DNA of 35,772 bases from Candidatus Saccharimonadota bacterium. Lineage in GTDB: Bacteria > Patescibacteriota > Saccharimonadia > Saccharimonadales > AWTP1-31. The notes below the pieces were generated by a model. The model searched no databases, was not told the origin of the DNA, and saw only the letters and a program-made list of their open reading frames with translations. The position numbers and the translations under genes were made by a program. The DNA is taken from contig JAGQMX010000029.1 of NCBI GenBank assembly GCA_020428425.1, forward strand, positions 1-35,772. Reading direction: 5' to 3'. Below are positions 1-27,112 of the stretch, piece after piece. Each line of letters starts with the position of its first letter. The stretch's first letter is position 1.

Positions 1-1
1 T

Positions 2-130
2 ATTACTGCAACATTAAAAAATCTAGGCAACGCATTTGGTCCTACTGAGAAGAAAAGTAGTTCTGACTTAACTTACGGTAATAGTACCTACGGTGGAGGC
101 GGAGCAAGTAATAAGCCAAGGATTTTGTAA
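2..130 (+). CDS. 3' end of an upstream ORF cut by the window edge (unknown function, Gly-rich C-terminus)
   Basis: Frame 2 is open from the window edge to TAA at 128-130 (...LTYGNSTYGGGGASNKPRIL*). The stop overlaps the next start as TAATG, which suggests translational coupling to the collagen-like gene. Confidence 0.4.
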   Translation: MTATLKNLGNAFGPTEKKSSSDLTYGNSTYGGGGASNKPRIL

Positions 131-498
131 TGGCTAGGCTACCAATACCAGGCCAAGATGGCGGTACTTGGGGAGCTATACTCAATGAATTTTTAGAGAC
201 ATCACACAATAGTGATGGGACTATTAAAAGCAGTTCAATACCTACAGTTTCAGGGGCTACTGGTCCCCAAGGACCAACTGGGGCCGCTGGAGCTACTGGA
301 CCAGCGGGTGCAACCGGAAGTAACGGTTCTGATGGTGCAACTGGTCCACAAGGAGATGACGGGACATCTAGAGTTTGGTTTTATGATGGAGCAGATTATA
401 TTGAAAAACCTGCGGCTAGAATATTTATAGGTGATACCGATCCAAGTACAGAAGGCTTTACGCTAGTCGATGGTGATATTTGGGAAAATACAGCATAA
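130..498 (+). CDS. Short collagen-like (G-X-Y repeat) protein, tail-fibre-like N-terminal cassette
   Basis: 122-aa ORF with AAGGA upstream. It has 12 uninterrupted G-X-Y triplets (GATGPQGPTGAAGATGPAGATGSNGSDGATGPQGDDG). The N-terminal 30 aa ([30 protein letters not shown]) are 29/30 identical to ORF 3790-4608. The C-terminal motif is DGDIWENTA. No signal peptide. Confidence 0.8.
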   Translation: MARLPIPGQDGGTWGAILNEFLETSHNSDGTIKSSSIPTVSGATGPQGPTGAAGATGPAGATGSNGSDGATGPQGDDGTSRVWFYDGADYIEKPAARIFIGDTDPSTEGFTLVDGDIWENTA

Positions 499-501
499 CA
501 A

Positions 502-1311
502 ATGAGTAGAAAAGTTTGGCAGACTAATCAATGGATAGATATTGGTGTTACAACAACATCAGATATTCAAGAGTTTACTTCTTCGGGAATCTGGAATAAA
601 CCAGCAGGATCTTTTACTTCCGTAACCATAATTGCTGTTGGTGGTGGAGGCGGCGGAGGTGGAGGTGTCCAGCGAAATGATGCAGCTGCTTATGGCTCCG
701 GTGGCGGCGGTTGCGGAGGGCTAGAGATGGTAGTTGTTGACTTTAATGACATGGGCGCTACAGAAACAATCACTGTTGGGTCTGGTGGTTCTGGAGGACC
801 ACCTGCTACTCACTGGTCTATAGGTTCTGGTATCGCTGGTGGAGCTAGTTCTTGTACTGTAACAAATGGATCAACAGTTACTGCCCCTGGTGGGGGCGGT
901 GGAGGACATGGTTATCCATCTGGGCCTGGTAATGCAGGAGGAGCATCCGGAGGTGGAACAGGCTCTGGTGGTACTGGAGGATCAAGCGGAAATGGAGTTG
1001 ACGGTGCTACAGGAGGAGGTGGAGAACCGGGTAGTGCTGGAGGGGCTGGTCACGGCGTCCCGGCTGGTCCAGTACCTGGCTTTGGTGAAGACGGTGCCGA
1101 TGGTGGTAATTGTCCGGCAATATACGGTGTAGGTGCTGGAGGACGTGGTGGCGATGGTCTAGCTTATAATCCAACGCCGGCTGGTAATGGAGGTGCAGGG
1201 GGCTTCCCTGGTGGTGGGGGTGGTGGAGGTGGACACCATAGGTATACTATTTCGGACTCCGGATCAGGAGGTGCTGGAGCTAATGGACGCGTGGTAATAA
1301 TCTGCACCTAA
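502..1311 (+). CDS. Glycine-rich domain protein (phage tail-fibre-type glycine-rich family)
   Basis: 269-aa ORF starting 3 nt after the previous stop and in the same frame. The N-terminus MSRKVWQTNQWIDIG is shared with ORF 1365. The motif FTSSGIWNKPAG...VTIIAVGGGGGGGGG is followed by many G3-G9 runs separated by short variable segments, and the protein ends ...GRVVIICT. No signal peptide. Confidence 0.8.
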   Translation: MSRKVWQTNQWIDIGVTTTSDIQEFTSSGIWNKPAGSFTSVTIIAVGGGGGGGGGVQRNDAAAYGSGGGGCGGLEMVVVDFNDMGATETITVGSGGSGGPPATHWSIGSGIAGGASSCTVTNGSTVTAPGGGGGGHGYPSGPGNAGGASGGGTGSGGTGGSSGNGVDGATGGGGEPGSAGGAGHGVPAGPVPGFGEDGADGGNCPAIYGVGAGGRGGDGLAYNPTPAGNGGAGGFPGGGGGGGGHHRYTISDSGSGGAGANGRVVIICT

Positions 1312-1364
1312 CTAAAATCAGAAAAATGCACATGCTATAATTCTTATGAAAACAGGTAGTAATT

Positions 1365-2411
1365 ATGAGTAGAAAAGTTTGGCAGAATGGACAATGGGTA
1401 GACGTAGGTAATAGCGTGCCGGAATCTATCCATTCAATTACTCAAGCTGACTTCGATGCCCTTAATTCACCAGACCCGAGCATAATATACGGTATTGTTT
1501 CCTCTGGGACAGAAACAACTGCTGACTCGGTGCGAATTAATCAAAAGCTTGTTACTAAGCTCTATGTCGGAAATACCGAACTTTGGACTCCAACTTTATT
1601 TGCTACAGGTGGCACAGTTAGCGATGTTGCTATGGCTGGTGTGATGTGGCGATTTCACACGTTCACTTCGTCTGGCCAGTTTGAGGTTTTGCAAGATAAT
1701 TTGGAAGTTGAGTACCTACTCGTTGCTGGCGGCGGCGCAGGCGGTGGAAATGTTGTTGATTCACTTTTATCTGCCGGCGGTGGTGGTGGCGCAGGAGGCG
1801 TGCTATCAGGAGCACTGTTATCGGATGTTGGAGTGTATGATCTAGAAGTCGGAGCAGGCGGAGTTGGATCTCAAGGTGCAGCAGGTGGTAATGGTGAAGA
1901 TAGTACTGGGTTCGACTTGATTGCTATCGGTGGCGGTGGTGGTGGCGCTAAAAGTAATGGCGTGGCTAAGTTGGGTGGCTCGGGTGGAGGTGGCAACTCT
2001 CAAGTAAATGAAAGCGGGGCTGCGGGAACTATCGGACAGGGCTATGCAGGTGGTAATGGGTTAAGTAGTTACGGTTCTCGTCCTGCCGGTGGCGGTGGTG
2101 GTGGCGGTGGCATAGGATTGAATGGTTATAGCTATGCAAGTAACGCTGTTGGCGGCGCAGGAGGAATCGGGATCGAGTGGCCACTTAGTTCTGGTGAATA
2201 CTACGCCGGTGGTGGCGGTGGCGCTAGTGCGGGTAATACTGGAACGGTAGGGTCTGCCACTCATGGTGGTGGAGACGGTGGCTTAGCTGACGGCAATGCG
2301 GGAACAGCCAATACTGGCGGTGGTGGTGGCGGTGGCGCAGGTGGCTATGACGGCGCGATAGGCGGAGATGGTGGCTCAGGAATAATAATTATTCGTTACC
2401 AAATTGGATAA
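1365..2411 (+). CDS. Glycine-rich domain protein, paralogue of 502-1311 with a longer N-terminal region
   Basis: 348-aa ORF. The first 22 nt are identical to ORF 502 (MSRKVWQ..QW.D.G). The motif FHTFTSSGQFEV...VEYLLVAGGGAGGG is followed by multiple poly-Gly runs, and the protein ends GSGIIIIRYQIG, as is typical for this glycine-rich family. Confidence 0.8.
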   Translation: MSRKVWQNGQWVDVGNSVPESIHSITQADFDALNSPDPSIIYGIVSSGTETTADSVRINQKLVTKLYVGNTELWTPTLFATGGTVSDVAMAGVMWRFHTFTSSGQFEVLQDNLEVEYLLVAGGGAGGGNVVDSLLSAGGGGGAGGVLSGALLSDVGVYDLEVGAGGVGSQGAAGGNGEDSTGFDLIAIGGGGGGAKSNGVAKLGGSGGGGNSQVNESGAAGTIGQGYAGGNGLSSYGSRPAGGGGGGGGIGLNGYSYASNAVGGAGGIGIEWPLSSGEYYAGGGGGASAGNTGTVGSATHGGGDGGLADGNAGTANTGGGGGGGAGGYDGAIGGDGGSGIIIIRYQIG

Positions 2412-2527
2412 ATAGGAGAAATAAATGTTACTAAATGGGAAGTGGCAGGCTAGTATGATGTGTCCAATAATACTATAGCTATATGTAGGGTCACAGATTA
2501 TAAAAAAGCTATGTTAGGATAGAACAT

Positions 2528-3709
2528 ATGAAGGACAACATGATCTCAACAGTTAACCAAAAAATGACCTTCCATGTTATAGCTCTACCACATACCCAAA
2601 CAACACTAGAATACGAAGCCTGTGCATACACCTCTAAAGTGCGCAAGTTCTGTAACATGATGAAATCACTTGGTCACACCGTTTATTTATATGCCTCGGA
2701 AGATAACCAAGCTGATTGCGACGAACTTATAACAATTGCCTCAAAAGCTGATCAAGAAAGATGGTTCGGAAAAAACGACTTTAAGAAAAACTTTTTTAAT
2801 CTAGATTGGGATGCCTCAAAAATTCATTGGCAAGAAACCAACAAAAGAGCAATTAAACAACTTAAGAAACGCCTGAAACAACAAGACTTTATCTGTCTAA
2901 TAGGTGGTGTTTGCCAAAAACCAATTGCTGATGCTTACCCGCAAACTATGTCAGTTGAATTTGGGATAGGGTACGAAGGTGTATTTGCGCCATTTAGAGT
3001 CTATGAGTCATACGCTCATATGCATTATGTACATGGCAAACTCGGTGATGATAATGGGCATTTCTTTGATAGTGTCATACCTAACTACTTCGAACCAGAA
3101 TATTTTCCTTACTCAGCCGAAAAAGATGATTACTACTTATTCCTAGGTCGTATGGTTAAACGCAAAGGCCCAGAGATTGCCGTAGAAGTAACCAAACGTA
3201 TTGGTGCTAAGTTAGTCATGGCTGGCCAAGGTGTAACTAAAAAAACTGGAAATAAAATATACAGTAAAGAAATAACCCTAGAGGGTAACCATATCACCCA
3301 CGTAGGTCATGCCGATGTTAATAAACGAGCAGAATTATTAAGCAGAGCAAAAGCAGTATTCGTACCAACAACCTACATGGAGCCATTTGGTGGAGTGTCT
3401 GTTGAAGCCCTGCTATGTGGCACTCCAGTAATAGCAACAGATTTTGGTGCTTTCCCAGAAAATGTTCAGCACGGTATACATGGCTATAGGTTTAGGACAA
3501 TCGGAGAGGCAGTCTGGGCAGCAAAAAACTTAGATAAATTGAACAACAAAAAGATTCACGAATATGCAGTCGACAACTTCTCTGTAGATAGAGTCAGGTA
3601 TCTTTACCAGGCATACTTCGAACAACTACTCACCTTATGGGAGGATGGTTTTTATTCTAAATGGCATGACGGGGTATCTAAATATAATCGATACACACGA
3701 AGTAAATAG
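2528..3709 (+). CDS. Glycosyltransferase, GT-B fold (GT4/GT1-like)
   Basis: 393-aa ORF. The C-terminal half carries the classic GT-B retaining-GT signature (VFVPTTYMEPFGGVSVEALLCGTPVIATDFGAFPENVQHGIHGY, an E-x7-E type motif). AGGA lies upstream of the ATG. Confidence 0.85.
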   Translation: MKDNMISTVNQKMTFHVIALPHTQTTLEYEACAYTSKVRKFCNMMKSLGHTVYLYASEDNQADCDELITIASKADQERWFGKNDFKKNFFNLDWDASKIHWQETNKRAIKQLKKRLKQQDFICLIGGVCQKPIADAYPQTMSVEFGIGYEGVFAPFRVYESYAHMHYVHGKLGDDNGHFFDSVIPNYFEPEYFPYSAEKDDYYLFLGRMVKRKGPEIAVEVTKRIGAKLVMAGQGVTKKTGNKIYSKEITLEGNHITHVGHADVNKRAELLSRAKAVFVPTTYMEPFGGVSVEALLCGTPVIATDFGAFPENVQHGIHGYRFRTIGEAVWAAKNLDKLNNKKIHEYAVDNFSVDRVRYLYQAYFEQLLTLWEDGFYSKWHDGVSKYNRYTRSK

Positions 3710-3789
3710 TTTAACACTCAATCTCTGTCGGATTTGAACCACCCATACGCTTATGTTAAACTAAAAAGTAATTATGTTAGGTTCTTGTA

Positions 3790-4608
3790 GTGGCTAGACT
3801 ACCAATACCAGGTCAAGATGGAGGAACTTGGGGAGATATACTCAATGAATTCTTAGAGACATCACATAATAGTGATGGATCCATAAAGACTAGTGCTGTA
3901 CCTCCATCTTCTGGCGCTACTGGGCCAGCAGGTCCTACGGGAGCAACCGGTCCGCAGGGTGAGGCTGGAGCTACGGGAGCAGGAACAACAGGTGCAACTG
4001 GTGCTACTGGGCCACAAGGTAATACAGGAGATGATGGGTCAGAAGGTGCAACTGGTGCTACTGGGCCACAAGGTAATACAGGAGATGATGGGGCTACTGG
4101 AGCACAAGGTAGTGATGGTGCAACAGGAGCTACTGGTCCGGCTGGTGATTCTTATGTACCAGATCCTACAGCTGAGTCAGACGGGAAAGTTTTAACTACA
4201 TCTAGTGGATCTGCAGTATGGGGGGATGCGGTTGGTTTCATAAGAACTACTGCAGAATATAATGTAGCTGATCTTGACAATGATGCTCACGACAGTGGCA
4301 CAATTACTATGGCACCTGCCTGGCGAATACTTAAAGTTGAATCTAATGTTGCTGCTAGGGTTAGACTTTATGCGAATACTAGCTACCGTGACGCAGATGT
4401 GAATCGAACAATTGGTGATGACCCTACCGGTGATCATGGGTTACTTATGGACTTTGTTACTACCTCTGGTCAACTAAGTTGGGTACTATCTCCATTAATT
4501 GACGGTTATACGACTGATTCTTCTGATGATGTAGCAATTACTGTGACAAACAAGAGTGGTGGTCAAAGTGATACTAATGTAACGATAACATGGCTGAGAT
4601 GTGAATAA
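3790..4608 (+). CDS. Collagen-like repeat protein with a globular C-terminal domain (tail-fibre-like)
   Basis: 272-aa ORF with a GTG start. The start is supported because conservation with ORF 130 begins at codon 1 ([30 protein letters not shown]). About 26 G-X-Y triplets with one phase interruption (GAT-GA-GTT). These are followed by [14 protein letters not shown] and a roughly 130-aa non-repetitive C-terminal domain. No signal peptide. Confidence 0.8.
3991..4092 (+). repeat. Tandem duplication inside the collagen-like region (54-bp period, 48 nt identical)
   Basis: ggtgcaactggtgctactgggccacaaggtaatacaggagatgatggg occurs at 3991-4038 and again at 4045-4092, separated by tcagaa. It encodes [16 protein letters not shown] twice. 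Confidence 0.95.
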
Positions 4609-4633
4609 ATGATTAATTTTAAAAGGAGAGAGT

Positions 4634-5560
4634 ATGGCATATAGTTCTGGCACGGAGACATCCGATGGAGCAGCTACAGCAACACTGGTAGGTAAGATTG
4701 AAGATGCACTTACGGCACACGCTGCATGGGAATATGTAGAAGAAGTGACCGAGGGTGGATACACTACAAGAGTATGGAAAAACAAAGGAACAGAGAATGA
4801 CTTCGGAAGTGATTGGTATCTAGCACTTATGCGGACTTCTGATACATCTGATCTAATGTTTAAGGCAGCTGAAGATTGGGATGGAAGCAACGCGATTAGA
4901 GGATGTTTAAATCCAGGCAGTGAGAGCTACGTTGAATCGACCTATCGCTCTAGGTATGGCGATACCGGATACCCGTGGTCAGATAGTAAATGGAATTCAT
5001 ACGTAAATATAGCCACACACACATCAAGTTTTTCTTGGATAATTCATGTAAACAACAAAAGATTAGTGGTTCAGACCAGTATTTCTGGCTCATTACAGGG
5101 TATTAAGTATATAGGTCTATTTGACAAAGTTGAACCCTTTACATCTGCAGCATGGAATTCATATAACTTTCCTTTAGTGCTCGCCCCTTTTGACAACACG
5201 GCATACGATACCGATGGGGCTGGCTCGTCTTCAAGACGACCGATGAGTACCGATAATACCAGCGATGCGTATGCTATAAACAGCTACTTCGCTACGGGAT
5301 CTTCCATTTATTTTGTAAATACCTTCGTAGGAGACGTCGGCACACTAATAGATCACCCATACGTTGGATCCCGTGGATATGTTTTCCATACTTCCGGCAA
5401 TACCACGAATGGTAATTACAGAGGAGTATATAACGACTTATTATTCTTTAAAGGAGCTGCGCCATCGCCAGTTGGCGGTGACACTATTTCGGTAAATGGT
5501 GATAGCTGGATTTCCTTGGGTCGCATCGGTAGCTACATAGTCTGGGTACCAAATGACTGA
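4634..5560 (+). CDS. Hypothetical protein (candidate distal fibre or receptor-binding component)
   Basis: 308-aa ORF with a strong SD (AAAGGAGAG) 5 nt upstream. Aromatic/Ser/Thr/Gly-rich, with no TM segment or signal peptide. No family recognised with certainty. Confidence 0.7.
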   Translation: MAYSSGTETSDGAATATLVGKIEDALTAHAAWEYVEEVTEGGYTTRVWKNKGTENDFGSDWYLALMRTSDTSDLMFKAAEDWDGSNAIRGCLNPGSESYVESTYRSRYGDTGYPWSDSKWNSYVNIATHTSSFSWIIHVNNKRLVVQTSISGSLQGIKYIGLFDKVEPFTSAAWNSYNFPLVLAPFDNTAYDTDGAGSSSRRPMSTDNTSDAYAINSYFATGSSIYFVNTFVGDVGTLIDHPYVGSRGYVFHTSGNTTNGNYRGVYNDLLFFKGAAPSPVGGDTISVNGDSWISLGRIGSYIVWVPND

Positions 5561-5738
5561 TTATAACGACGGTTACTTATACGATGACACAAATCTCGGC
5601 TCAGATTGGATAGTAGCTAATATTGACTTTGGGCAAGGCGTAGATGAGGTTGAGGATACTGAATCTTCCGGGTCTACACCACAAGTACCAACCGAAGGTC
5701 AACTATGGCCAAGGGGTAATCAATCGAATAATTCATAA
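5553..5738 (+). CDS. Small acidic hypothetical protein
   Basis: 61-aa ORF overlapping the previous gene by 8 nt (ATGACTGA), which suggests translational coupling. Asp/Glu-rich. No recognisable domain. Confidence 0.45.
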   Translation: MTDYNDGYLYDDTNLGSDWIVANIDFGQGVDEVEDTESSGSTPQVPTEGQLWPRGNQSNNS

Positions 5739-5752: not shown

Positions 5753-6013
5753 TTATTTATGACTTCGATGTATACACCCCGCCCAACAACAAGGCCGCCG
5801 TTTTCCTTCAAGTAATTCTGATACGGTCCGTTCAATATGCTTTTTTCTAGTTTCTGGTTTTTTTGTAGTAATATTCCAACAAATCCATTCATTCCTAGCT
5901 AGTGGTGTTAAATCTTCCCATCGTTCAAGTGCACTTTCATCAGACAACAAGGCAGATTGTAAGTCTTTTGGTACTTCATGAACAACGCCTGTAGCAATTT
6001 GTTTTGTCTTCAT
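5753..6013 (-). CDS. YdeI/OmpD-associated (OmdA) family protein
   Basis: 86-aa ORF. The segment PKDLQSALLSDESALERWEDLTPLARNEWICWNITTKKPETRKKHIERTVSELLEGKRRPCCWAGCIHR matches the pattern of the small YdeI/OmdA family as I remember it. Confidence 0.7.
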   Translation of the reverse strand: MKTKQIATGVVHEVPKDLQSALLSDESALERWEDLTPLARNEWICWNITTKKPETRKKHIERTVSELLEGKRRPCCWAGCIHRSHK

Positions 6014-6897: not shown

Positions 6898-7467
6898 ATG
6901 TTAAATCTATTATCTCAAGTAGTAAATGGTGTTAAAGGTGGGGTTACATCAACTCTGAGTGGTGTCGGAGATATTGCTGGATCAGTGGTTGGTGCCGTTA
7001 AAGACGTAACGGTGACTACCTTGAAAGAATCAGGGGATTTCGTAAAACAAGGTGTTGAAGTACCGGCATCAATCGTAAAAGGATCATTGGAAGGAATAGC
7101 CAGTATTGGTACAGCCTCGGTTGGAGCTGTTAAGGGCGTAGTAGACGGGACTGTCCAAGGTTTCATCGAAGGTGGCGGGAAACAGGACGACGCGGTAAAC
7201 GGTGCAGTTGCACAAGCAATTATTAGTTCTAAAGACCTAGGGGAAGATGTAACAGATACTGCCGTATCAGCGGTGAAAGGTGCTGTCGAAGCCGTTGGAT
7301 CTGTTGGTGGAGATACAGCATCTGCAACCAAAGAAGCTGTCCAGACTGCATTTACAACTGCTACTGAAGTAGGTGGTGCATCTGTAGACAGTGTCACTGA
7401 AGCGTTAAAATCGGGTGTTGATGGTGCCGGAGATATTCTGGAATCAATGAAAAAACCTCGAACTTAA
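6898..7467 (+). CDS. G/A/V/T-rich repetitive hypothetical protein (LEA/apolipoprotein-like low complexity)
   Basis: 189-aa ORF with a very strong SD (AAGGAGGAG). It has recurring (S/A)VGAVKG.V, SAVKGAVEAVGSVGG and similar units. It has no Cys, Trp, Tyr or His and a single Pro within the repeat body, no TM segment and no signal peptide. Confidence 0.7.
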   Translation: MLNLLSQVVNGVKGGVTSTLSGVGDIAGSVVGAVKDVTVTTLKESGDFVKQGVEVPASIVKGSLEGIASIGTASVGAVKGVVDGTVQGFIEGGGKQDDAVNGAVAQAIISSKDLGEDVTDTAVSAVKGAVEAVGSVGGDTASATKEAVQTAFTTATEVGGASVDSVTEALKSGVDGAGDILESMKKPRT

Positions 7468-7504: not shown

Positions 7505-8086
7505 ATGAATAAAAAGATGATGGTTATAGCTGGCATAATACTAGCAGTTGTATTAGTTACGGTTGGGGTACTAGTTTTCAACACATCAGACGAAGATGAA
7601 AATGCGAGTGTCACCAACTCCACATCAACTGATACATCTGACACTACTGCACAGAGTAGTAGCATACAAGAATCAACCCTAGCAAATTTATTAGCTAATG
7701 ATAAAACTATTACTTGTACATTTAGCTACAGTAATGAAGAATCAAATTTTAATGGAACTGGTTATTTTGCAAACGGTGAAAATATGAGAGTTAATTATAG
7801 TGGCCAAGTAAATGGCAAGGATACAAATTTCTCAACAATTGTTACTGGTGGTACCAGTTATTTCTGGAATAACGAAACTAATAAAGGATTTAAATCTAGC
7901 GTCGATCCCGCGACCCTGCAACCCACAAATGATAGTTCTAGCGATAACCAAGGAATAGATCCAGACAAGAATATTAAATTCGATTGTAGTGATTGGCAAG
8001 TAGATACCGCTATGTTTAGCCCACCGTCAAATGTTGACTTCACCGACCTATCTAACATACAAATCCCAACCATACCCAATCAATAG
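7505..8086 (+). CDS. Membrane-anchored or secreted hypothetical protein
   Basis: 193-aa ORF with AGGAG as SD. An N-terminal hydrophobic segment (MMVIAGIILAVVLVTVGVLVF) is followed by a Ser/Thr/Asp-rich linker and a globular part with two Cys. Confidence 0.7.
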   Translation: MNKKMMVIAGIILAVVLVTVGVLVFNTSDEDENASVTNSTSTDTSDTTAQSSSIQESTLANLLANDKTITCTFSYSNEESNFNGTGYFANGENMRVNYSGQVNGKDTNFSTIVTGGTSYFWNNETNKGFKSSVDPATLQPTNDSSSDNQGIDPDKNIKFDCSDWQVDTAMFSPPSNVDFTDLSNIQIPTIPNQ

Positions 8087-8130: not shown

Positions 8131-10644
8131 ATGATTTGGTATAAACAACCCATTGACGACGTATATACCGAATTGAATAGTACTATTAATGGGTTAAGCA
8201 GTGATAATTTAACAGCCAGACAGATCAAATATGGAGCCAACCGATTAGTCCTAAAGGGAGACCCCTTCTGGAAAGTAGTTGTAGAACCATTTAAAAGCGT
8301 ATTTGTCGCTGTTTTATTAGCAGCTGCAGGTATAAGCTACATTAGTAATGAGTACCTAGATGGAACGATAGTACTAATTATCGTTTTTATTAATGCTGTT
8401 ATCTATTGGAGTCAACAATATGCGACAGACCGGGTACTTAGAAGCTTGCGTAATCAAGATAAGCAGATAGTTACCGTCAAGCGGGATGGACGAGATGTTC
8501 ATATTGACAGCGAAGAATTACTACCCGGTGATATATTCTATATCGATGAGGGGATTAAAATTCCAGCAGATGCCCGGATTATTAGTCAATCAAACCTACT
8601 AATAGATGAAGCCTCACTAACTGGAGAATCTCGTCCAGTCAGTAAACATAATGGTGTACTGAGTTCCGAAAAACAAGTATACGAGAGATCAAACATGCTT
8701 TTCCAGGGGACTTATGTCACTAAAGGTGCCGCCGAAGCAATAGTAGTTAATATTGGTAATCTAACAGAATTCGGTAAAATTGCCGATTTATCTATTGGAG
8801 AAACCACAAAAAGCCCCGTACAGGACAAAATAGATAAGCTAGTCACCTTAATGATAAAAATCATAGCCGTACTGGCAGGAATAACTTTTATTCTGTCATT
8901 AGTTAGAGGGATACCGACTGATGAAGCGATTAGGTTCGTTCTTGCTTTTGCAGTATCAGCTGTTCCAGAAGGGCTACCAGTTGCCCTAACTGTAATAATT
9001 GTTCTAGGTATGCGTCGATTAGCCAAGAAAAAAGCTCTAGTCAGATCATTTAAGGCAGTAGAAGATATTGGCTTGGTAACAGCAATAGCAACTGATAAAA
9101 CAGGGACTCTTACTAAAAATAAATTAAGCGTCAATGAAGAATGGTCATTGAACAACGAAAGTCTAAAAAAAATACTTGGGTTAACTCTAGGGCCATCTTC
9201 TACTTTGGATGATTCGTTGGATATCGCCATTGCTGAATACACTAATACTAAACATAAGAAAGTAGATAAATATTACCCATTCGATCTAAGCATAAAAATG
9301 AGTGGAGTCTACCAAAAAGCAACTGGTGAAATATACATAAAAGGAGCACCAGAGCATTTATTATCTAGGTCTAATGTTTCTAGCGCTCAGAAAAAATTAG
9401 CAGAGTCTAAACTCCATGAACTTGCTTCCAAAGGTCATAGGGTGATAGCCATTGCCAGCTATAAAACAAAGAACCCACCGGAAGATTTGACAAAATTGAC
9501 AAAAAAAATACACTTTATTGGTTTAATTGGACTTGCCGATGAACTGCGCGTTGAAGCTGCTGAATCAATTCGTCTAGCCCAGCAAGCCGGTATTAAAGTT
9601 AGCATGATAACCGGAGATCACTATGAAACTGCCTTCAATATTGCTAAGACACTAGGACTAGCTAACCACACCAACCAGATTATTCAAGGTACTGATTTAC
9701 CTAAAAACCAGTCTGCACTTGCTAGAGCTATTAAAGATAAAACAGTATTTGCCCGGATTATTCCTGAAGATAAATTTAGAATCTTAAAAGCGCTAAAAGA
9801 AAAAGAAATTACTGCTATGACGGGCGATGGGGTTAACGACGTACCGGCCATATCAAATGCCCACGTAGGAATTGCCATGGGTTCTGGTAGCGATATAGCG
9901 AAGGACTCCAGCGGGATAATTCTTTTAGATGATAATTTTACTACTATTGTAAAAGCCATCAAAGAGGGAAGAACTATTTTTGAGAATATACGCAAAATGC
10001 TGTTTTACCTAATAGCTACTTCTATAGGGGAAGTATTCTCGATGATGGGGGCTTTAATTATTGGATTACCTTTGCCGGTGACCGCTATACAAGTACTCTG
10101 GTTAAACATTGTCACCGATAGTACTATGGTTTTACCGGTTGGGTTGGAACCAGCCGAAGATGACATCATGAATAAACGTCCCAGGCATCCTAAGCAACCG
10201 ATCTTAGATAGGGTAATTATCACCCGCATGTTTCTAGTCGCACTGGCGATGGCCGCGGTTACAATTATTACAGTCATAATTCTCAAAAACCAAGACCATC
10301 AAGTTGAATATATTCGTACTGTTGCATTCATCGGACTGGCTGTAGGGCAGTGGGTTAATGCATTCAATGCTCGGTCCGAAACAAAATCAATTTTCAGTCG
10401 GAACTATAAAAAAAATAACGGGCTGTTAGTCGGTTTAGCAGTATCAATAGTTCTGCAACTGCTAATCATGGTCGGACCATTACGGCATGTATTTGATATT
10501 GCTGACGTACCAGTGCTAACTATGTTGTATAGTGCAGTTGCTATGTCAGTAGCCGTTTTAGGGATATCTGAAATTCATAAGTTATACACCAAACACTCCA
10601 GGACTTACCCAAAACATAAATCTGAAGTTACTCCAATCGCTTAG
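8131..10644 (+). CDS. P-type cation-transporting ATPase (P2-type, Ca2+/Mg2+-like)
   Basis: 837-aa ORF with the TGES actuator motif, PEGLPVALTV in TM4, the phosphorylation site DKTGTLTKN and the hinge TGDGVNDVPAI. Confidence 0.9.
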   Translation: MIWYKQPIDDVYTELNSTINGLSSDNLTARQIKYGANRLVLKGDPFWKVVVEPFKSVFVAVLLAAAGISYISNEYLDGTIVLIIVFINAVIYWSQQYATDRVLRSLRNQDKQIVTVKRDGRDVHIDSEELLPGDIFYIDEGIKIPADARIISQSNLLIDEASLTGESRPVSKHNGVLSSEKQVYERSNMLFQGTYVTKGAAEAIVVNIGNLTEFGKIADLSIGETTKSPVQDKIDKLVTLMIKIIAVLAGITFILSLVRGIPTDEAIRFVLAFAVSAVPEGLPVALTVIIVLGMRRLAKKKALVRSFKAVEDIGLVTAIATDKTGTLTKNKLSVNEEWSLNNESLKKILGLTLGPSSTLDDSLDIAIAEYTNTKHKKVDKYYPFDLSIKMSGVYQKATGEIYIKGAPEHLLSRSNVSSAQKKLAESKLHELASKGHRVIAIASYKTKNPPEDLTKLTKKIHFIGLIGLADELRVEAAESIRLAQQAGIKVSMITGDHYETAFNIAKTLGLANHTNQIIQGTDLPKNQSALARAIKDKTVFARIIPEDKFRILKALKEKEITAMTGDGVNDVPAISNAHVGIAMGSGSDIAKDSSGIILLDDNFTTIVKAIKEGRTIFENIRKMLFYLIATSIGEVFSMMGALIIGLPLPVTAIQVLWLNIVTDSTMVLPVGLEPAEDDIMNKRPRHPKQPILDRVIITRMFLVALAMAAVTIITVIILKNQDHQVEYIRTVAFIGLAVGQWVNAFNARSETKSIFSRNYKKNNGLLVGLAVSIVLQLLIMVGPLRHVFDIADVPVLTMLYSAVAMSVAVLGISEIHKLYTKHSRTYPKHKSEVTPIA

Positions 10645-10715
10645 GTATCAGGTTGAATCCTGGGGGTATGTTATGCTTATTACTATAAATACTGAACGAA
10701 CTGGAGGGTAGATTC

Positions 10716-11237
10716 ATGAAAAAGAACCATCTGATTATTATAATAGCCGGGTTCTTTTTGATCGGTGGAATAATGTTTGTGGCTAATATTACTAGCGACT
10801 CAAACAGCAACTCTACTTCATCACAAGAATTATCCGAAGAGGAACAAATCAAGTTAAGCACCGAGAATAAGGACGCTGTAGAGAAACAGCAAGCAGATGG
10901 AAGTAACAATAGCCTTTTCAATGCAGATAGATTCATTACCTTGGAGGATTACCAGAAAAATAATCAAGACTATCCAGTGAATACTATAGTATATTTCTTT
11001 CACGCTAGCTGGTGTCCGATATGTGTTTCTATAGAAAAAGAAATCAATAAAGATCCCAGCCAGATACCTGAAGGTGTAACATACGTAAAAGCTGATTTCG
11101 ATAGCTCGACCGACCTAAGAAAAAAATATGGCGTAACAACACAGTATACTTTTGTCCAAGTAGACAATAATGGAAATGAAGTAAAGAAATGGTCATCAAC
11201 TAATCTAGCTTCGTCAGTGGCTAATATTCAATTATAA
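10716..11237 (+). CDS. Membrane-anchored thioredoxin-fold protein (WCPIC active site)
   Basis: 173-aa ORF with GGAGGG as SD. It has an N-terminal TM segment and a thioredoxin-like motif, YFFHASWCPICVSIEKEI. Confidence 0.8.
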   Translation: MKKNHLIIIIAGFFLIGGIMFVANITSDSNSNSTSSQELSEEEQIKLSTENKDAVEKQQADGSNNSLFNADRFITLEDYQKNNQDYPVNTIVYFFHASWCPICVSIEKEINKDPSQIPEGVTYVKADFDSSTDLRKKYGVTTQYTFVQVDNNGNEVKKWSSTNLASSVANIQL

Positions 11238-11250
11238 CGAAATACAACCA

Positions 11251-11997
11251 ATGCTATTAACTATTATTCTTTCATATGTAGCTGGACTAATTACGGTATT
11301 GGCTCCTTGTATACTGCCTCTATTGCCAATTATCTTAGGTGGTTCCATCGAAAACCAGGGAAAAGACCGGCAGCAAAATCTCAGGCCATATATTATTACA
11401 GCCAGCCTAGTAGTCTCTTTAATTATTTTTACCCTGTTACTACGAGCAAGCACAGCTCTTATTGGCGTTGATCCAAATGTATGGAGACTAATTTCAGGTG
11501 GCATCGTAATTATCCTTGGTGTTTTTATGTTAGCGCCATTACTTTGGGCAAGGTTTATAGGAAGTTTAGGAATAGAGTCAAAATCCCAGGGACTATTGAA
11601 TAAGGCATTTTCTAATAAAAATCACACCCTGTCGGCTATTTTGACTGGGGCTGCTCTAGGGCCGGTTTTTAGCAGTTGTAGCCCAACTTATGCATGGGTG
11701 CTAGCAACTGTCCTACCTACTAATGCCTTACAAGGACTAATTTACTTAACTATCTACTGTCTGGGGGTAGCCACCTCATTACTTGCGATAGCTTTACTGG
11801 GCCGAAAGCTACTAAGCAAAGTAGGCTGGGCAACCGATCCAAAAGGTTGGTTCCAAAGAGTTATCGCTATAATATTCATAGCTGTTGGAATATTCATAAT
11901 TACTGGGTGGGATAAACAAGTCCAAAGCTGGTTGGTAGAAAAGGATTATTTAAACTTAATTCAAATCGAAACACAGCTGGTTCCCGATCAGAATTAA
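11251..11997 (+). CDS. ccdA: Cytochrome c biogenesis CcdA/DsbD-family thiol-disulfide electron transporter
   Basis: 248-aa polytopic membrane ORF with LAPCILPLLPIILGG in the first TM and a second Cys motif (FSSCSPTY). It lies directly downstream of the thioredoxin-like gene. Confidence 0.8.
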   Translation: MLLTIILSYVAGLITVLAPCILPLLPIILGGSIENQGKDRQQNLRPYIITASLVVSLIIFTLLLRASTALIGVDPNVWRLISGGIVIILGVFMLAPLLWARFIGSLGIESKSQGLLNKAFSNKNHTLSAILTGAALGPVFSSCSPTYAWVLATVLPTNALQGLIYLTIYCLGVATSLLAIALLGRKLLSKVGWATDPKGWFQRVIAIIFIAVGIFIITGWDKQVQSWLVEKDYLNLIQIETQLVPDQN

Positions 11998-12033
11998 GCT
12001 TATTTATTCCTAGATATTTGTTATTATTAAATA

Positions 12034-12927
12034 ATGTCACAGTCAAAAAATGCAAACCTAATTGAAAACAATATTAACCGAATAGACAAGTACCAACGTA
12101 GCAGCCGAAATGTCGGTTTTATCGTTGCAGTCGTAAAAAGATTTGGAGATGAGAAAGTAGGCTACCTTGGGGCCCTGATAACTTACTATGGCTTCTTGTC
12201 ATTATTCCCATTACTGTTAATTCTTACCTCCGTTTTAGATATAGTAGCCAGCGGAAATCCAGAGATTAAAGTGAAAATACTAGAATACGCTAGCAGCTAT
12301 GTACCAATATTAGGAGATCAACTGCAAAGCAATATACCAGGTTCTTCCAAATCGGGAGTAGCTCTATTCGTTGGTCTACTTTTCTTATTTTACGGGGCAA
12401 GGGGAGTAGCCGATGCTTTCCGGCATGCGGTCAATAGTATCTGGCATACACCAAAAGGACAACTGCAAACATTTCCGCAGAATTACTTAAGTAGTGTTTA
12501 CATAATCTTATTAGGAGGTTGTGGTCTGATAGCCTCTGCCGGGCTAGCTACCTATGCATCAGGGCTTGGTGATTTTTTCTTATTTAAAATACTATCTGTT
12601 GCCCTAGGGTCAATACTGCTAATAGCCACTTTTTATGGATTATTCCGGATAGCAGTTACAAAAACTGAGGTCAGCCATGGAGATCTAGTACTAGGCGCCG
12701 TATTATCTGGACTCGGGATACTGCTACTCCAGCTAGTTGGAGGCTTCATACTTGCCAACCAACTTAAAAATTTAAGAAATCTTTATGGTACCTTCGCCTT
12801 AGTGCTTGGCTTATTATTCTGGATCTATCTACAGGTTAGGGTAGTACTATTCGCCGTTATGATAAATGTCGTGCATAAATATAGATATTGGCCTGTATGC
12901 ATATCTGCTGATGAAAAAATAACGTAA
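12034..12927 (+). CDS. YihY/BrkB family membrane protein
   Basis: 297-aa polytopic ORF. YLGALITYYGFLSLFPLLLILTSVL and the overall layout are typical of YihY (formerly called RNase BN). Confidence 0.75.
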   Translation: MSQSKNANLIENNINRIDKYQRSSRNVGFIVAVVKRFGDEKVGYLGALITYYGFLSLFPLLLILTSVLDIVASGNPEIKVKILEYASSYVPILGDQLQSNIPGSSKSGVALFVGLLFLFYGARGVADAFRHAVNSIWHTPKGQLQTFPQNYLSSVYIILLGGCGLIASAGLATYASGLGDFFLFKILSVALGSILLIATFYGLFRIAVTKTEVSHGDLVLGAVLSGLGILLLQLVGGFILANQLKNLRNLYGTFALVLGLLFWIYLQVRVVLFAVMINVVHKYRYWPVCISADEKIT

Positions 12928-12932
12928 TAAAT

Positions 12933-12962
12933 TTGAAGATTTTAGTGCATAAGCGCTATACT
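12933..12962 (+). promoter_or_regulatory. Sigma70-like promoter candidate (TTGAAG-18 nt-TATACT)
   Basis: TTGAAG lies at 12933-12938 and TATACT at 12957-12962 with an 18-nt spacer, just after the yihY stop. This would give a leader of about 250 nt before the ATG at 13217. Confidence 0.4.
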
Positions 12963-13216
12963 ATATGTAGCAATATGAGTGCTGGGAAACTTTCTTACTC
13001 GTAGGCTTTAAACTCTCGGAGTCCATACACACTGTCGATAGATAAGCGTCACTGAATAACTCCTAACTATTAGCTCATAGGTCAAAATGAAAATGCATAG
13101 ATCGGTTGCATGATCAGACTTATATAGCTCCAACTAATAAAACCCGTTCATCTCTACACTGAAGATAATTCAGATAGGGTATATCTCTTTTAATATTTAT
13201 AATCTGGAGCAAAGCA

Positions 13217-13486
13217 ATGACAACTAAACAATTTATCAATCAAGAAGTATCGGTAACCTCATACAACTTCCAAGGTACAAATAACCTAAGAACTGTACCA
13301 AAACAAATATCTTATAATAACCAACGAGTTACATTCATCGATTCTGGTATGCGCTATATATTGAAAAAAGGGCAGGAGATAACTGAGCTATTCGATATGT
13401 GCGACGGACAAAATAACTATCGGCTGAAAATCGATGAAACTAATCTTCGATGCACTCTACTACGTATATCACCAGTTACGAGTTAA
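13217..13486 (+). CDS. Small hypothetical protein
   Basis: 89-aa ORF with GGAG 8 nt upstream. No recognisable domain. It ends 4 nt from the stop of the convergent kinase gene. Confidence 0.55.
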   Translation: MTTKQFINQEVSVTSYNFQGTNNLRTVPKQISYNNQRVTFIDSGMRYILKKGQEITELFDMCDGQNNYRLKIDETNLRCTLLRISPVTS

Positions 13487-13490
13487 CCTA

Positions 13491-14519
13491 CTAATTGGAT
13501 GTATCATTCTTTTTTAAAGGAAGTTTTATACAGAAAGTCGAACCCTTACTAGGTGAGCTTTTTTCTAGGCTAATTTCTCCATGATGCTGATCAATAATCT
13601 GCTTAGCAATAGCTAATCCTAGACCATTGCCATTAGCTGATGTAGCCCCTTCAGTATTTTTACCCCTGAAAAATCTATCAAAAATCTTAGCTTTCTCCTC
13701 ACTCACAATACCGATACCCTTATCAGCAATTTTTATCTTAGCGCTACTCCTACTCTTTGATAGTGTGATAGAAATTTCCGGCTTGTTGCCAGTTTTAGTA
13801 TATTTAATAGCGTTATCTAATATTATTCCGATAGCCTGGCGTAGCAGAGTACTGTCAGCTTGGATTACTACATCCTTTGCTAGATTCAATTCAATATCTG
13901 CCTGGCTGGTCTTTTTATACAATTCGGACTCAGGTTTAATGATTTTTACTAGATCAACGGCTTTAAAGTTTTTACTGTCTCCACCAATTTTCGTTAAGTT
14001 CAGCAGCTGACTAGTAATATTCTGCAACCTAGATACCTCTTCTAAGTTCGATGAGATGGTATCTTTGGCAACAGCTAGGGTTAACTTCTTATTCCTAAGA
14101 GTTACTTCAGATTGGGCTTGTATGACGGCCAGAGGGGTACGAAGTTCATGACTAGCATTAGCCGTAAAATCTTTCTGGAGTTTATGAGCCTCCTGAATTG
14201 GCCGAAGCGTTTGTTTAGCAAACAGATAACTAAGGTAGCCGCCAATAGCGATAATACTTAGATTCACGATTATTAGACTACTAAGCAGTTGAGCCCGGTC
14301 TTCAGATAACTGTTCTTCACGAATCTGAACTAACTCTGGAAAACTAGCAGGCGGTTTTCCTGGTCTTATAGCCTTCCTGATATATTCAGCCTGTCGTTCA
14401 GCGCCTGTACGTAGCCGATTACTAGTTAGGTTATATACTGGAATACTAAACATTAAACAAATTAAGGCAATAGCTGCAACATATCCAATAGTTAATCTTA
14501 TTACGGCGGACTTAAACAT
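13491..14519 (-). CDS. Sensor histidine kinase (two TM segments, no HAMP or PAS domain)
   Basis: 342-aa ORF with H-box ANASHELRTPL, N-box ILDNAIKYT, G1 IADKGIGI, F-box IFDRFFRG and G2 GNGLGLAIAK. Two TM segments flank a loop of about 50 aa, and the DHp domain starts right after TM2. Confidence 0.9.
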   Translation of the reverse strand: MFKSAVIRLTIGYVAAIALICLMFSIPVYNLTSNRLRTGAERQAEYIRKAIRPGKPPASFPELVQIREEQLSEDRAQLLSSLIIVNLSIIAIGGYLSYLFAKQTLRPIQEAHKLQKDFTANASHELRTPLAVIQAQSEVTLRNKKLTLAVAKDTISSNLEEVSRLQNITSQLLNLTKIGGDSKNFKAVDLVKIIKPESELYKKTSQADIELNLAKDVVIQADSTLLRQAIGIILDNAIKYTKTGNKPEISITLSKSRSSAKIKIADKGIGIVSEEKAKIFDRFFRGKNTEGATSANGNGLGLAIAKQIIDQHHGEISLEKSSPSKGSTFCIKLPLKKNDTSN

Positions 14520-15216
14520 TTACCACTCTCATCCGATAACCAAAACCCCTGACTGTTTCAATCAGTGAATCACTACCTGGTTCATCAATTTTCTTGCGTA
14601 TCGATTTAATAAATACCTCAACTGTATTCGGTAATACGTCTGAATCAAAATCCCATACGTGGCTTAATATTTGTTCCTTACTAGCTATCGTTCCTTTATT
14701 AACCGCGAGATACTCAAGCACTGCGAATTCTTTTTTACTCAGTTTAATGGGAGTCTGTTTTGTTGTAAGTTTATTGGAAGAGAACCTGCTGACTTCCTTG
14801 TTGGTAGTATTAATTTGAAGATTTCCAAATTTGATCACTTTCTCGACAACATTTTTAGGGCGTCGCTTCAGGGCCCGCAAACGGGCCAATAACTCGTCAA
14901 ATTTAAATGGTTTGGTTAAGTAATCATCTGCACCTTCGTCCAAGCCTTGAATTATATCTTCCGTCTCTCCCATCGCAGTCAGCATAATTACTGGAGTAGT
15001 TATACCTTTACGTCTTATAAGACTACATATATCACTACCGTCCTTTCCGCCAGGCAACATTCTGTCTAGAATAATAAAGTCATAATCTTCAGTGGTGGCG
15101 TAAGCTAATCCGTCATCGTAGTTCGTATTTAAGTCGACTGCGTAGCCGTCTTGTTCAAGGCCGGTCTTAATCGCTTTCGCTAACTTAACTTCATCTTCAA
15201 CTAATAGAACTTTCAT
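14512..15216 (-). CDS. OmpR/PhoB-family response regulator
   Basis: 234-aa ORF. It has a receiver domain (MKVLLVEDE...FIILDRMLPG...LTAMG...ADDYLTKPF) and a winged-helix output (LSKKEFAVLEYL...ETVRGFGYRM). It overlaps the kinase gene by 8 nt. Confidence 0.9.
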   Translation of the reverse strand: MKVLLVEDEVKLAKAIKTGLEQDGYAVDLNTNYDDGLAYATTEDYDFIILDRMLPGGKDGSDICSLIRRKGITTPVIMLTAMGETEDIIQGLDEGADDYLTKPFKFDELLARLRALKRRPKNVVEKVIKFGNLQINTTNKEVSRFSSNKLTTKQTPIKLSKKEFAVLEYLAVNKGTIASKEQILSHVWDFDSDVLPNTVEVFIKSIRKKIDEPGSDSLIETVRGFGYRMRVVNV

Positions 15217-25909: not shown

Positions 25910-27112
25910 ATGGCTAATAACCCCGATACTACTAATCCTGACTCACAAACCGGCAACCAAGCCGCTGATTTGGTACGCAAAAAAATCAACAAAATATACA
26001 ATAAAGAACCGGACACCAAAGAAGAAATTATTGAGGTAGTTGAGCTACAAAAACCAAGATCCAAGCATCAAGAATACATGATGTCCCTAACCGAATCCGG
26101 CAGGTCGCTAGCCGAAATTCAGACCGCTTGGCACAATTATTATCTAGGATTAACCGACTCCGAAAAACATGCAGTGTGGCAAGAGTTTTACGCCAATCAT
26201 GATAAACAAACCGAAAAAGATAACCAACCCAAAGACAATGACCTGAATACTGAGTCACCTACCGGAGCAGCGACTATACAGTCAAACAATACCAAAACTC
26301 TTAAACATAATGTCGCCAAAAGCTCCAAGACACGATCGGTCTCCGACATTAAACAGCAGCTAACAAAAAAGGCTAATAAGTCTGCGAACCGTAAACTTAA
26401 AACTAAACAACATTTCCAGTCGCTTCTTTTTGGTGTTGGTCTAGGGTTGGTCGTAGTACTTATAATGCTGTTTGGATTTTTTAATGATAGATTTATCGCC
26501 CCATTTATTACTCCAAGTAAATCTGTCAGCGCAACACCAATAATAATTGATGGCTCTTCGACTGTGGCCGACGGCAGCTCAAAAGTAATTATTCCTAAAA
26601 TCAATGTCGAAATTCCGGTTGTCTACGATGAGCCCTCTATAGAAGAAGATGCCATACAAAAAGCCTTAGAAAGGGGTGTAGTCCACTACGCTACTACTCC
26701 TGACCCTGGCCAAAAGGGAAACGCAGTTATTTTTGGTCACTCAAGTAATAACATTCTTAATAGCGGTAAATATAAATTTGCATTTGTACTTTTAAGTAAG
26801 TTGGAAGAAGGTGATGTTTTTTATCTCACCAAGGACAAAGTGCGCTATGGCTATAAAGTCTATAAAAAAGAAATTGTTGCGCCGACAGATTTAGGAGTAT
26901 TAGGCGCTAACGATAAGACCGCTACAGCCACCTTGATAACCTGTGACCCACCAGGAACATCCTTGAACAGATTAATAGTAGTAGGCGAGCAAATATCCCC
27001 AGACCCTACTAAAAACGCTGCAAACCCCAATAAAAACAAAAAAACTGACCAGCTAGAAATAATCCCTAGTAACGCGCCTAGTCTCTGGCAGAGAATATTG
27101 AATGTCTTCTGA
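25910..27112 (+). CDS. Sortase (transpeptidase) with a long N-terminal cytoplasmic extension
   Basis: 400-aa ORF with a TM segment (LLFGVGLGLVVVLIMLFGFF). The catalytic residues are His (VIFGHSSN), Cys in TLITCDPPG and Arg (NRLIVVG). Confidence 0.85.
   Translation: MANNPDTTNPDSQTGNQAADLVRKKINKIYNKEPDTKEEIIEVVELQKPRSKHQEYMMSLTESGRSLAEIQTAWHNYYLGLTDSEKHAVWQEFYANHDKQTEKDNQPKDNDLNTESPTGAATIQSNNTKTLKHNVAKSSKTRSVSDIKQQLTKKANKSANRKLKTKQHFQSLLFGVGLGLVVVLIMLFGFFNDRFIAPFITPSKSVSATPIIIDGSSTVADGSSKVIIPKINVEIPVVYDEPSIEEDAIQKALERGVVHYATTPDPGQKGNAVIFGHSSNNILNSGKYKFAFVLLSKLEEGDVFYLTKDKVRYGYKVYKKEIVAPTDLGVLGANDKTATATLITCDPPGTSLNRLIVVGEQISPDPTKNAANPNKNKKTDQLEIIPSNAPSLWQRILNVF

Follow-up and report, generated by a model that had tools for sequence, protein, structure and literature searches.

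What are collagen-like and glycine-rich fibre genes doing in a bacterial chromosome, between ordinary cellular genes on both sides? This question is raised by the first 5738 nucleotides of a contig of a Saccharibacterium (JAGQMX010000029.1, positions 1 to 35,772; the whole 35,772-nucleotide stretch that was analysed is called the window here), where the open reading frame (ORF) calls give the 3' end of one frame (ORF0) followed by seven complete ones (ORF1 to ORF7), all in the same direction and, from ORF1 to ORF7, all coding for acidic proteins. The spacing from ORF0 through ORF7 is, in order, -1, 3, 53, 116, 80, 25 and -8 nucleotides, and another 14 nucleotides separate ORF7 from a convergent ydeI-like gene on the minus strand. 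The original prediction, which was made from the letters of this DNA, had read here a packed co-directional module of collagen-like, glycine-rich and GT-B glycosyltransferase (GT) genes that ends beside the ydeI-like gene, and on both points the coordinates and the Pfam matches agree with it. Our answer to the question, which we hold with moderate confidence, is that the module is a modular fibre locus in the chromosome of a Saccharibacterium, assembled from parts of phage tail fibres and retained by the lineage, in which two fibre sets (set A, ORF1 to ORF3; set B, ORF5 to ORF7) would be arranged around one conserved glycosyltransferase of the GT4 family (ORF4).

The phage relationship of the parts can be followed most directly in ORF5, which is composed of an N-terminal adaptor, 8 + 18 GXY triplets, a linker with [14 protein letters not shown] and a C-terminal domain of about 125 residues of the phage-fibre type. 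The triplets, half of which are G-X-Thr (the range over the stalks is 38-50%), match Collagen PF01391 with 44.1 bits, where Pfam matches were counted above the curated cut-offs (27.2 bits for Collagen and 24.3 bits for Gly_rich_2), and residues 139-271 match phrog_15343 with an E value of 1e-12. This C-terminus shares 28-38% identity with the C-termini of cyanophage proteins, among them several with a tail-fibre annotation, with Synechococcus myophages giving the closest GenBank phage matches, and it is 47% identical to the end of an 862-residue tail protein of the viral contig L053 (labels such as L001 denote sequence loci fetched for comparison, namely contigs of metagenome-assembled genomes (MAGs), metagenome contigs and viral contigs). 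ORF1 is a shorter protein of similar build, with a 33-residue N-terminal adaptor, 13 GXY triplets that pass the Collagen cut-off just barely (28.1 bits), and a C-terminal end of about 40 residues (…DGDIWENTA). In fact the first 33 residues of ORF1 and ORF5 are nearly identical, the 24 nucleotides 5' of the start are also in common, and the adaptor is conserved across 21 proteins. Both ORFs match the collagen regions of phage tail-fibre PHROGs, including 'collagen like minor tail' families. Moreover, the adaptor matches 33 IMG/VR contigs with GC contents of 34-70%, mostly right at the N-terminus of the protein, and it shares 58% identity with the beginnings of collagen-repeat proteins from the Streptomyces phages BRock, pSt2308 and GiJojo. 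The link with actinobacteriophages that had been suggested at first stands for this N-terminal motif, as seen in BRock and GiJojo, but it is not an exclusive one, the GT and the ORF5 C-terminus being closest to Synechococcus myophages.

As for ORF6 and ORF7, which had been taken as two orphans, both turn out to have relatives. An exhaustive HMMER search gives ORF6 187 cluster representatives at E<=1e-3, nearly all of about 300 residues and aligned end to end, and the orphan status suggested by a word-index search (3 matches) was an artefact of the method; the single match to a 51-residue N-terminal query in the word-index search was likewise such an artefact. The AlphaFold2 model of ORF6 built on 102 sequences reached a pLDDT (predicted local distance difference test) of 92.7 and a pTM (predicted template modelling score) of 0.92, where three sequences gave a pLDDT of 40. 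Compared with the PDB by Foldseek, this model has significant matches only to chains K and G of 8rk3, both from the baseplate of phage JBD30 and both matched over the full length (E 5e-7 and 3e-6, template modelling (TM) score 0.55, probability 1.00). Judged from their size and similar folds, the two chains are probably gp47 and gp48, which are described as two proteins of similar fold that together form the lateral fibres of JBD30 binding the type IV pilus (PMC11445458). Among the structures of BFVD, all 18 matches of the model at E<=1e-3 are phage proteins, the best with a TM score of 0.74. A tblastn search of ORF6 against GenBank phages gave no match, and its closest viral relative is 38% identical and comes from sequence of 65% GC. 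ORF6 is likely to be a distal binding subunit docked on ORF5.

The gene order leads to the same side. In the viral contig L053 (128 kb, 65% GC), the tape measure and tail protein genes come first, next the gene of the 862-residue tail protein, which ends in collagen repeats and a phrog_15343 domain, next the ORF6 homologue, and after it the replication genes (helicase, DnaB and thymidylate synthase). The order of a fibre gene, an ORF6-like gene and a small ORF is found also in L050, L052, L087 and L090; in the phage-like contigs the ORF6 homologue always comes after a fibre gene, and an ORF of 42-69 residues follows it in L050, L052, L087, L089 and L090. In the window this position is taken by ORF7, which overlaps ORF6 by 8 nucleotides; its C-terminal PTEGQLWPRGN is conserved. 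L012 and L013 contain homologues of ORF7, and a 67-residue ORF of L050 has a motif that resembles this one. ORF7 would be the constant small partner of ORF6, perhaps as a chaperone or an adaptor. Because this gene order is shared with phage contigs, the ORF5 C-terminus, ORF6 and ORF7 can be regarded as the terminal cassette of a phage tail module. Altogether, with the ORF5 C-terminal domain, the adaptor and the ORF6 fold pointing in one direction, the parts are to be considered as related to phage tail fibres, as the original prediction had proposed; the opposite case that it had set out, namely no relation to phage fibres together with a core-genome role, did not arise, since such a relation is found by profile and structure searches alike.

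The gene standing between the two sets is ORF4. It matches Glycos_transf_1 PF00534 with 77 bits (E 2e-21) and has, in accordance with the retaining GT4/GT-B enzymes, an EX7E motif at residues 285-293, whose two glutamates are invariant between the window and L012, and its best profile match is a phage GT family, phrog_3408 (E 2e-91). Its closest GenBank phage matches are GTs of Synechococcus myophages, 42-44% identical over more than 90% of the length, and the 44% identical one, gp016 of S-CAM7, is sited between baseplate hub and tail-fibre genes. When viral contigs were scanned with the alignment of the GT, no close copy turned up. More distantly, in the viral contig L075 (IMGVR_UViG_3300043331_000441, 130 kb) a 137-residue adaptor protein, proteins of 932 and 316 residues and a GT homologue are encoded co-directionally at 10001-15215, the GT homologue (37% identity) lying 3.7 kb downstream of the adaptor gene. 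Since L075 joins an adaptor gene with a GT homologue, the link between GT and fibre is probably older than the transfer. Upstream of this run, L075 also encodes an 1858-residue collagen-repeat protein.

How far the arrangement is kept in bacteria was examined by a scan with the GT alignment, using one genome per species and two exact peptide patterns. It gave 35 loci, of which about 25 belong to Candidatus Saccharibacteria MAGs (48-75% identity), four to Acidimicrobiia and one to a genome labelled Acidobacteriota; the possibility of a Saccharibacteria-like organism, raised in the original prediction, is borne out by the relatives of the first kind. Of the 28 loci of the Saccharibacteria type, 18 contain a collagen gene with the adaptor, and in 13 of these it lies within 300 nucleotides of the GT, on either side; about ten GT loci have no adaptor gene in the sequence fetched. 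The neighbours of the GT locus in the relatives are hrcA, grpE, dnaK, truB, tatC and ribosomal-protein-like genes, and no structural phage gene was found by the PHROG screen in the flanks screened. The pair of GT and fibre gene is widely conserved in Saccharibacteria chromosomes, and ORF4 is the conserved anchor gene of the locus. In three Acidimicrobiia MAG contigs of 0.25-0.9 Mb (L039, L042 and L044), GT homologues of 48-51% identity have long collagen-repeat proteins a few kb away, and the collagen protein of L044 starts with a signal-like N-terminus.

Around the GT, the gene content of the relatives varies. The C-terminal parts of the adaptor-collagen proteins carry Fn3, DUF4082, CBM5/12 or DUF5907, and the partners encoded after them vary as well and have no signal peptide; those of extracellular type include BD-FAE esterase, CotH+Fn3, GDPD, GH64, GH81, CBM5/12 and Laminin_G_3 proteins. 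For example, an esterase cassette stands beside the GT in seven MAGs (L015, L018, L020, L021, L023, L025 and L026; e.g. L020 11240-15000), consisting of a short adaptor-collagen protein, a 151-residue protein and a BD-FAE/alpha-beta-hydrolase esterase of about 930 residues, all of them signal-less; the 151-residue protein has no family match and is absent from the gene calls of L021. At L030 1130-10492, L031 11162-14173 and L037 11672-17611, the adaptor-collagen gene or the GT is paired with GDPD, GH64 beta-1,3-glucanase, CotH+Fn3 or two GH81 glucanases, and two of these partner types again match phage families, namely the CotH kinase-like+Fn3 protein (phrog_6813, E 4e-88) and the GDPD phosphodiesterase (phrog_17803, E 9e-76). 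The cassette of ORF5, ORF6 and ORF7 itself recurs in L012 with 62-75% identity, directly after truB. Apparent remnants of lost fibre genes are seen too: in L012 a truncated 50-residue ORF, all that is left of an upstream adaptor gene, lies beside the GT (7899-8051), and in L016 one of 78 residues lies downstream of the GT (2643-2879), both keeping the 33-residue adaptor only. Because the cassette content varies and such remnants occur, the cassettes are taken to be gained, swapped and lost around a stable GT.

Compared with set B, set A is less specific to phages. ORF2 matches Gly_rich_2 PF21722 with 44.7 bits (E 2e-11), together with phrog_863 (E 8e-11) and the 'minor tail protein' families phrog_2683 and phrog_356, while ORF3 matches PF21722 with 78.4 bits (E 1e-21) and phrog_2295 with an E value of 9e-51; the two have their first 15 residues in common (N-terminus MSRKVWQxxQW). 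ORF3 has at least 1374 homologues, the closest named one among the matches listed coming from a Candidatus Saccharibacteria MAG, and PF21722 is carried by all 120 homologues listed. No match to GenBank phages was obtained by tblastn with ORF3, either in full length or with residues 1-191, and sequence searches of the PDB yielded no meaningful match for ORF2, ORF3 or the C-terminal domain of ORF5. In other organisms Gly_rich_2 occurs in fusion with prepilin N-termini, Laminin_G_3, Fn3 and type IX secretion system (T9SS) sorting domains, and because of these fusions it can be understood as a general extracellular adhesin-type domain. The set A unit, a short collagen gene with two Gly-rich genes, is found again in three further MAGs of Saccharibacteria; it adjoins the GT in L016 and L017, and in L093 it is flanked by comEC/ruvC and dnaJ, with the GT encoded on another contig of the same MAG. 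As a separate observation, in the proteins P0161, P0203 and P0257 Gly_rich_2 is joined to a prepilin-type N-terminal methylation domain, by which display on type IV pilus-like fibres would be possible.

Whether the locus is the end of a prophage can be answered from its flanks. To the left, an independent 77-kb metagenome scaffold (L001; ERZ28655656 scaffold_107), identical to the window across the shared 15.6 kb, extends it by 5.4 kb, i.e. to 10 kb upstream of ORF6, and upstream of ORF0 it carries a 90-residue ORF on the other strand, tatA, tatC, a gene for a 742-residue Big_13 protein and one for an FN3 protein. To the right, 30 kb of cellular genes follow, including P-type ATPase, thioredoxin/DsbD, two-component systems, MgtE, ABC transporter, GluRS, sortase and three tRNAs, the nearest tRNA lying at 21.5 kb. 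Within -10/+30 kb, as covered by L001 and the window with Pfam and PHROG, there is no tape-measure, distal-tail, baseplate, capsid, portal or terminase gene, nor are there the tube, sheath or baseplate genes by which a tailocin would be recognised; integrase, holin and lysin were found neither in the window nor in L001, as already noted in the original prediction, and the PHROG screen of the unannotated ORFs of the window gave no hallmark match. The GC content at third codon positions (GC3) is 0.20-0.37 in the module genes vs 0.29-0.36 in eight genes elsewhere in the window. Overall, the module is higher in GC owing to its Gly and Ala codons, and since GC3 is host-like, this rise does not mean foreign DNA; a recent horizontal arrival is rejected on the same ground. 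The locus is not a prophage, and its reading as the end of an uncharacterised one, which was among the two first offered, is ruled out by the cellular left flank (tatA, tatC and Ig/FN3 surface-protein genes, with no tail genes), the cellular right flank and the host-like GC3. In the right flank, positions 6898-7467 encode a 189-residue Gly/Ala/Val-rich protein without a Pfam match, which has a weak match to a tape-measure PHROG (E 6e-5) that is probably compositional.

The immediate left neighbour, a tat locus of the twin-arginine translocation (Tat) system, merits attention of its own. In full length (L001 5276-5497), ORF0 has a TRREFL twin-arginine-type signal, a hydrophobic stretch (maximum Kyte-Doolittle mean over 19 residues 1.99) and a YGxSxYGG motif conserved at its C-terminus. 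Its match to NCBIfam NF038009 ('twin-arginine translocation system-associated protein') spans the full length with an E value of 6e-13, below the curated cut-off, and TIGR01409 is matched with 17.0 bits (cut-off 16.7). Because of the TRREFL signal and the NF038009 match, ORF0 belongs to the tat locus and not to the fibre set, and its candidacy as a part of the latter was dropped on the NF038009 match. Seven ORF0 homologues adjoin tatC or the GT, an ORF0-like gene is present in 7 of the 28 Saccharibacteria-type GT loci, and 9 of the 28 have tatC no more than 4 kb from the GT, in several gene orders. The Tat system moves folded proteins. Considering this recurrent tat neighbourhood, and that a 2018 report knew of Tat in one Saccharibacterium only, a Tat-dependent piggy-back export of the fibres is a candidate route worth testing.

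From these observations the following scheme may be drawn. In set A, the common N-terminus of the paralogues ORF2 and ORF3 probably docks on the C-terminus of the ORF1 stalk, while in set B the longer ORF5 stalk would carry ORF6 and ORF7, most likely seated on its C-terminal domain. Because ORF1 and ORF5 have the same 33-residue adaptor, both stalks should dock on one common base. The stalks would trimerise, and ORF4 would, as gene linkage alone suggests, glycosylate the neighbouring fibre protein by putting sugars on the stalks, possibly at the G-X-Thr triplets. The fibres would then stand outside the cell, where their exchangeable tips may bind the envelope of other bacteria, for example that of the epibiont's host, and in the relatives may attack such an envelope enzymatically; the neighbouring Tat system would be the candidate export route. 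Actinobacteria are the known hosts of cultivated Saccharibacteria. The domesticated fibre set for attachment, the other of the two readings first offered, gives the best fit to the comparative data, where the surface location and the host attachment are what we infer. A wider reading is put forward as a tentative one and is rather improbable at present. In it, a lineage-wide fibre system of chromosomal inheritance, derived from phage tail fibres, would have a common adaptor, a glycosylated stalk and swappable tips (Gly_rich_2 adhesins, JBD30-like pilus-binding subunits and envelope-degrading enzymes); the fibres would fold in the cytoplasm, leave through the neighbouring Tat system as passengers of a signal-bearing partner or by some other unconventional route, and set the host range.

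Several results weigh against the proposed fibre locus and need to be put together. In ORF1 to ORF7 the Kyte-Doolittle mean over 19 residues never exceeds 1.25, so that hydrophobic segments are absent; LPXTG motifs are absent too, and no RR occurs within their first 40 residues as would be expected for Tat substrates. None of them thus has a Sec or Tat signal, a transmembrane segment or a sortase motif by which a surface display could be explained. The absence of a signal peptide and transmembrane segment in the original prediction holds accordingly for ORF1 to ORF7, but not for the partial first ORF, ORF0, with its twin-arginine-type signal and hydrophobic stretch. No conserved candidate for a docking partner of the adaptor was found nearby, the tat genes aside. 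The closest solved relative of ORF4 is a glucosylsucrose synthase, i.e. a small-molecule glucosyltransferase, which is aligned over the donor-binding half only. The cassettes are patchy, and with the adaptor remnants in L012 and L016 this means that individual sets are dispensable. Moreover, no named cultivated strain is among the GT matches of the scan by two exact peptide patterns, and no description of the locus was found in the literature searched, the Southlakia transposon-sequencing study included.

The most serious rival is that the fibres are supplied in trans to a particle or phage encoded elsewhere (a tailocin, a particle like a gene transfer agent, a prophage or an infecting phage), being assembled in the cytoplasm and released by lysis. 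The absent export signals would fit such a cytoplasmic assembly, several of the parts have virion homologues, and the strict conservation of the adaptor implies that its docking partner is conserved too, and in phages this partner is the virion. However, neither the -10/+30 kb around the locus nor the screened flanks of the relatives contain tail, baseplate, capsid, terminase or lysis genes, the locus stands beside housekeeping genes in many species, the scan of viral contigs gave no close copy of the GT, and the closest viral relative of ORF6 is the 38% identical one of 65% GC; besides, the genomes of Saccharibacteria are very small. With these points on its two sides, a supply in trans is conceivable and doubtful. 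It is also unlikely that the locus has no present function, be it as what is left of an old prophage in decay or as a place where phage genes have accumulated. Though the missing phage neighbours and export signals, the truncated adaptor-only ORFs of L012 and L016 and the varying cassette content from genome to genome would agree with decay, none of the seven ORFs is disrupted, and they are closely spaced, with stop codons overlapping start codons. Many samples yielded an identical ORF6, on 23 contigs in total, and at all ten loci shown the ORFs of the module have the same lengths. Furthermore the orthologues are of full length at 53-75% identity, those of ORF6 at 67% and 53% being intact, GC3 is host-like, and the pair of GT and adaptor-fibre gene persists down to about 50% GT identity. 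Finally, that ORF4 is an ordinary cell-envelope GT for wall polysaccharide or glycolipid, to which the fibre genes are adjacent without a functional link, is quite unlikely, for although GT4 enzymes mostly use non-protein acceptors, the closest solved structure is of that kind and about ten GT loci have no adaptor gene in the fetched sequence, the GT directly adjoins an adaptor gene in 13 of 28 loci on either side, its best profile is a phage family with a cyanophage homologue inside a tail-fibre region, and L075 links it with an adaptor gene 3.7 kb away.

Returning to the chromosomal fibre locus, it can be compared with several known systems, the closest by homology being the tail-fibre cassettes of phages and the closest by analogy alone the glycosylated collagen-like fibres of the BclA type. 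As to JBD30, the ORF6 model matches two baseplate chains (305 and 317 residues) in full length, and the ORF6 family closes phage tail modules; the differences are a sequence identity of 12-14%, one ORF6 copy here vs a heterodimer pair, and the position of ORF6 after a collagen-like stalk with no tail or baseplate encoded nearby. T4-like cyanophages (S-CAM7 and the ACG-2014 phages) have in common with the locus a GT4 gene and ORF5-type fibre ends, but there these are parts of complete myophage genomes of 190-225 kb, whereas here they lie in a bacterial chromosome with a host-like codon composition. Actinobacteriophages share the collagen-repeat N-terminus (58%) and the 'collagen like minor tail' and 'minor tail protein' PHROGs, while the BRock gene lies in a tRNA region and not in a tail module, ORF3 has no GenBank phage match, and Gly_rich_2 is very common in cellular surface proteins. 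BclA of the Bacillus exosporium has no classical signal peptide, and it has a short conserved N-terminal targeting segment, variable G-X-Thr-rich repeats, a globular C-terminal domain and a nearby GT gene. The adaptor conserved in 21 proteins, the 38-50% of G-X-Thr triplets and the adjacent GT of the present locus resemble it in the sense of an analogy; no sequence relationship was found and the N-terminal motif differs. Unlike in the case of BclA, Saccharibacteria do not sporulate, and there is no mother-cell compartment to explain an export-free assembly. With the LPXTG-anchored streptococcal adhesins Scl1/Scl2 the likeness is in the collagen-like repeats: ORF5 has no signal peptide or LPXTG, the similarity is confined to the repeat, and the matches of ORF5 to NCBIfam models of streptococcal collagen-like adhesins (E 1e-14) cover the repeats only and are far below the cut-offs.

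How ultrasmall epibionts recognise and hold their hosts is largely unexplained; the literature consulted suggests type IV pili, type IV secretion and adhesins that are not named. In this context the locus offers concrete candidates, namely a modular set of receptor-binding proteins of phage type and, in the relatives, of envelope-active enzymes, which many Saccharibacteria keep in the chromosome. If they are used by the cell, the host-recognition hardware of phages would be reused by a bacterium that, like a phage, docks on another bacterium. A further question is how a monoderm cell would release proteins that have no signal and are probably trimeric and glycosylated. If they serve a particle encoded elsewhere, there would be an unrecognised phage-like element in Saccharibacteria.

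The features of the locus are collected in Table 1.

Table 1. Genes, repeats and borders of the fibre locus, in window positions except where L001 is named.
Feature	Position	Strand	Description
tat locus: tatC, tatA, 90-aa ORF, ORF0	L001 3584-5497 (window 2-130)		directly upstream of the fibre genes
ORF0, 3' end	2..130	+	73 aa in full; member of the tat locus; stop codon overlaps the ORF1 start
ORF1	130..498	+	122 aa, short collagen-like stalk
ORF2	502..1311	+	269 aa, Gly_rich_2 protein
ORF3	1365..2411	+	348 aa, second Gly_rich_2 protein, ORF2 paralogue
ORF4	2528..3709	+	393 aa, GT4-family (GT-B) glycosyltransferase
ORF5	3790..4608	+	272 aa, GTG start, collagen-like fibre
ORF6	4634..5560	+	308 aa, no Pfam match
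ORF7	5553..5738	+	61 aa, acidic, no Pfam match
ydeI/OmdA gene	5753..6013	-	PF13376 E 6e-18; right boundary of the module, first ordinary cellular gene
Direct repeat, 179 nt	106..284 and 3766..3944	.	79% identity; leader and N-terminal adaptor of ORF1/ORF5
Direct repeat, 45 nt	502-546 and 1365-1409		82% identity; N-terminal coding parts of ORF2/ORF3
Perfect tandem duplication, 54 nt, 1.9 copies	3990..4092	+	collagen region of ORF5

As regards the integrity of this layout, the left junction recurs in L001 and L004 and the right junction in L001, L002, L003, L005, L009 and L010, which are independent assemblies, and an assembly chimera is ruled out by the presence of both junctions in them. Scans of metagenomes for empty sites, with an exact 30-mer from ydeI, and with the ORF6 alignment gave no matches, and a promoter and terminator scan stayed at chance level (17 promoter-like sites vs 14 expected, and zero terminators). 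The two direct repeats listed in Table 1 could act as recombination substrates for the exchange of cassettes. Moreover the 54-nucleotide duplication is a recent event by which the ORF5 stalk has grown in frame by 18 residues, and it suggests ongoing variation in stalk length. Farther to the right, positions 25910-29906 of the window encode a sortase (400 residues), a PEGA-domain protein (492 residues) and a DUF4367 protein (392 residues), a cluster that appears to be a separate surface-protein locus; the fibre proteins are without a sortase motif.

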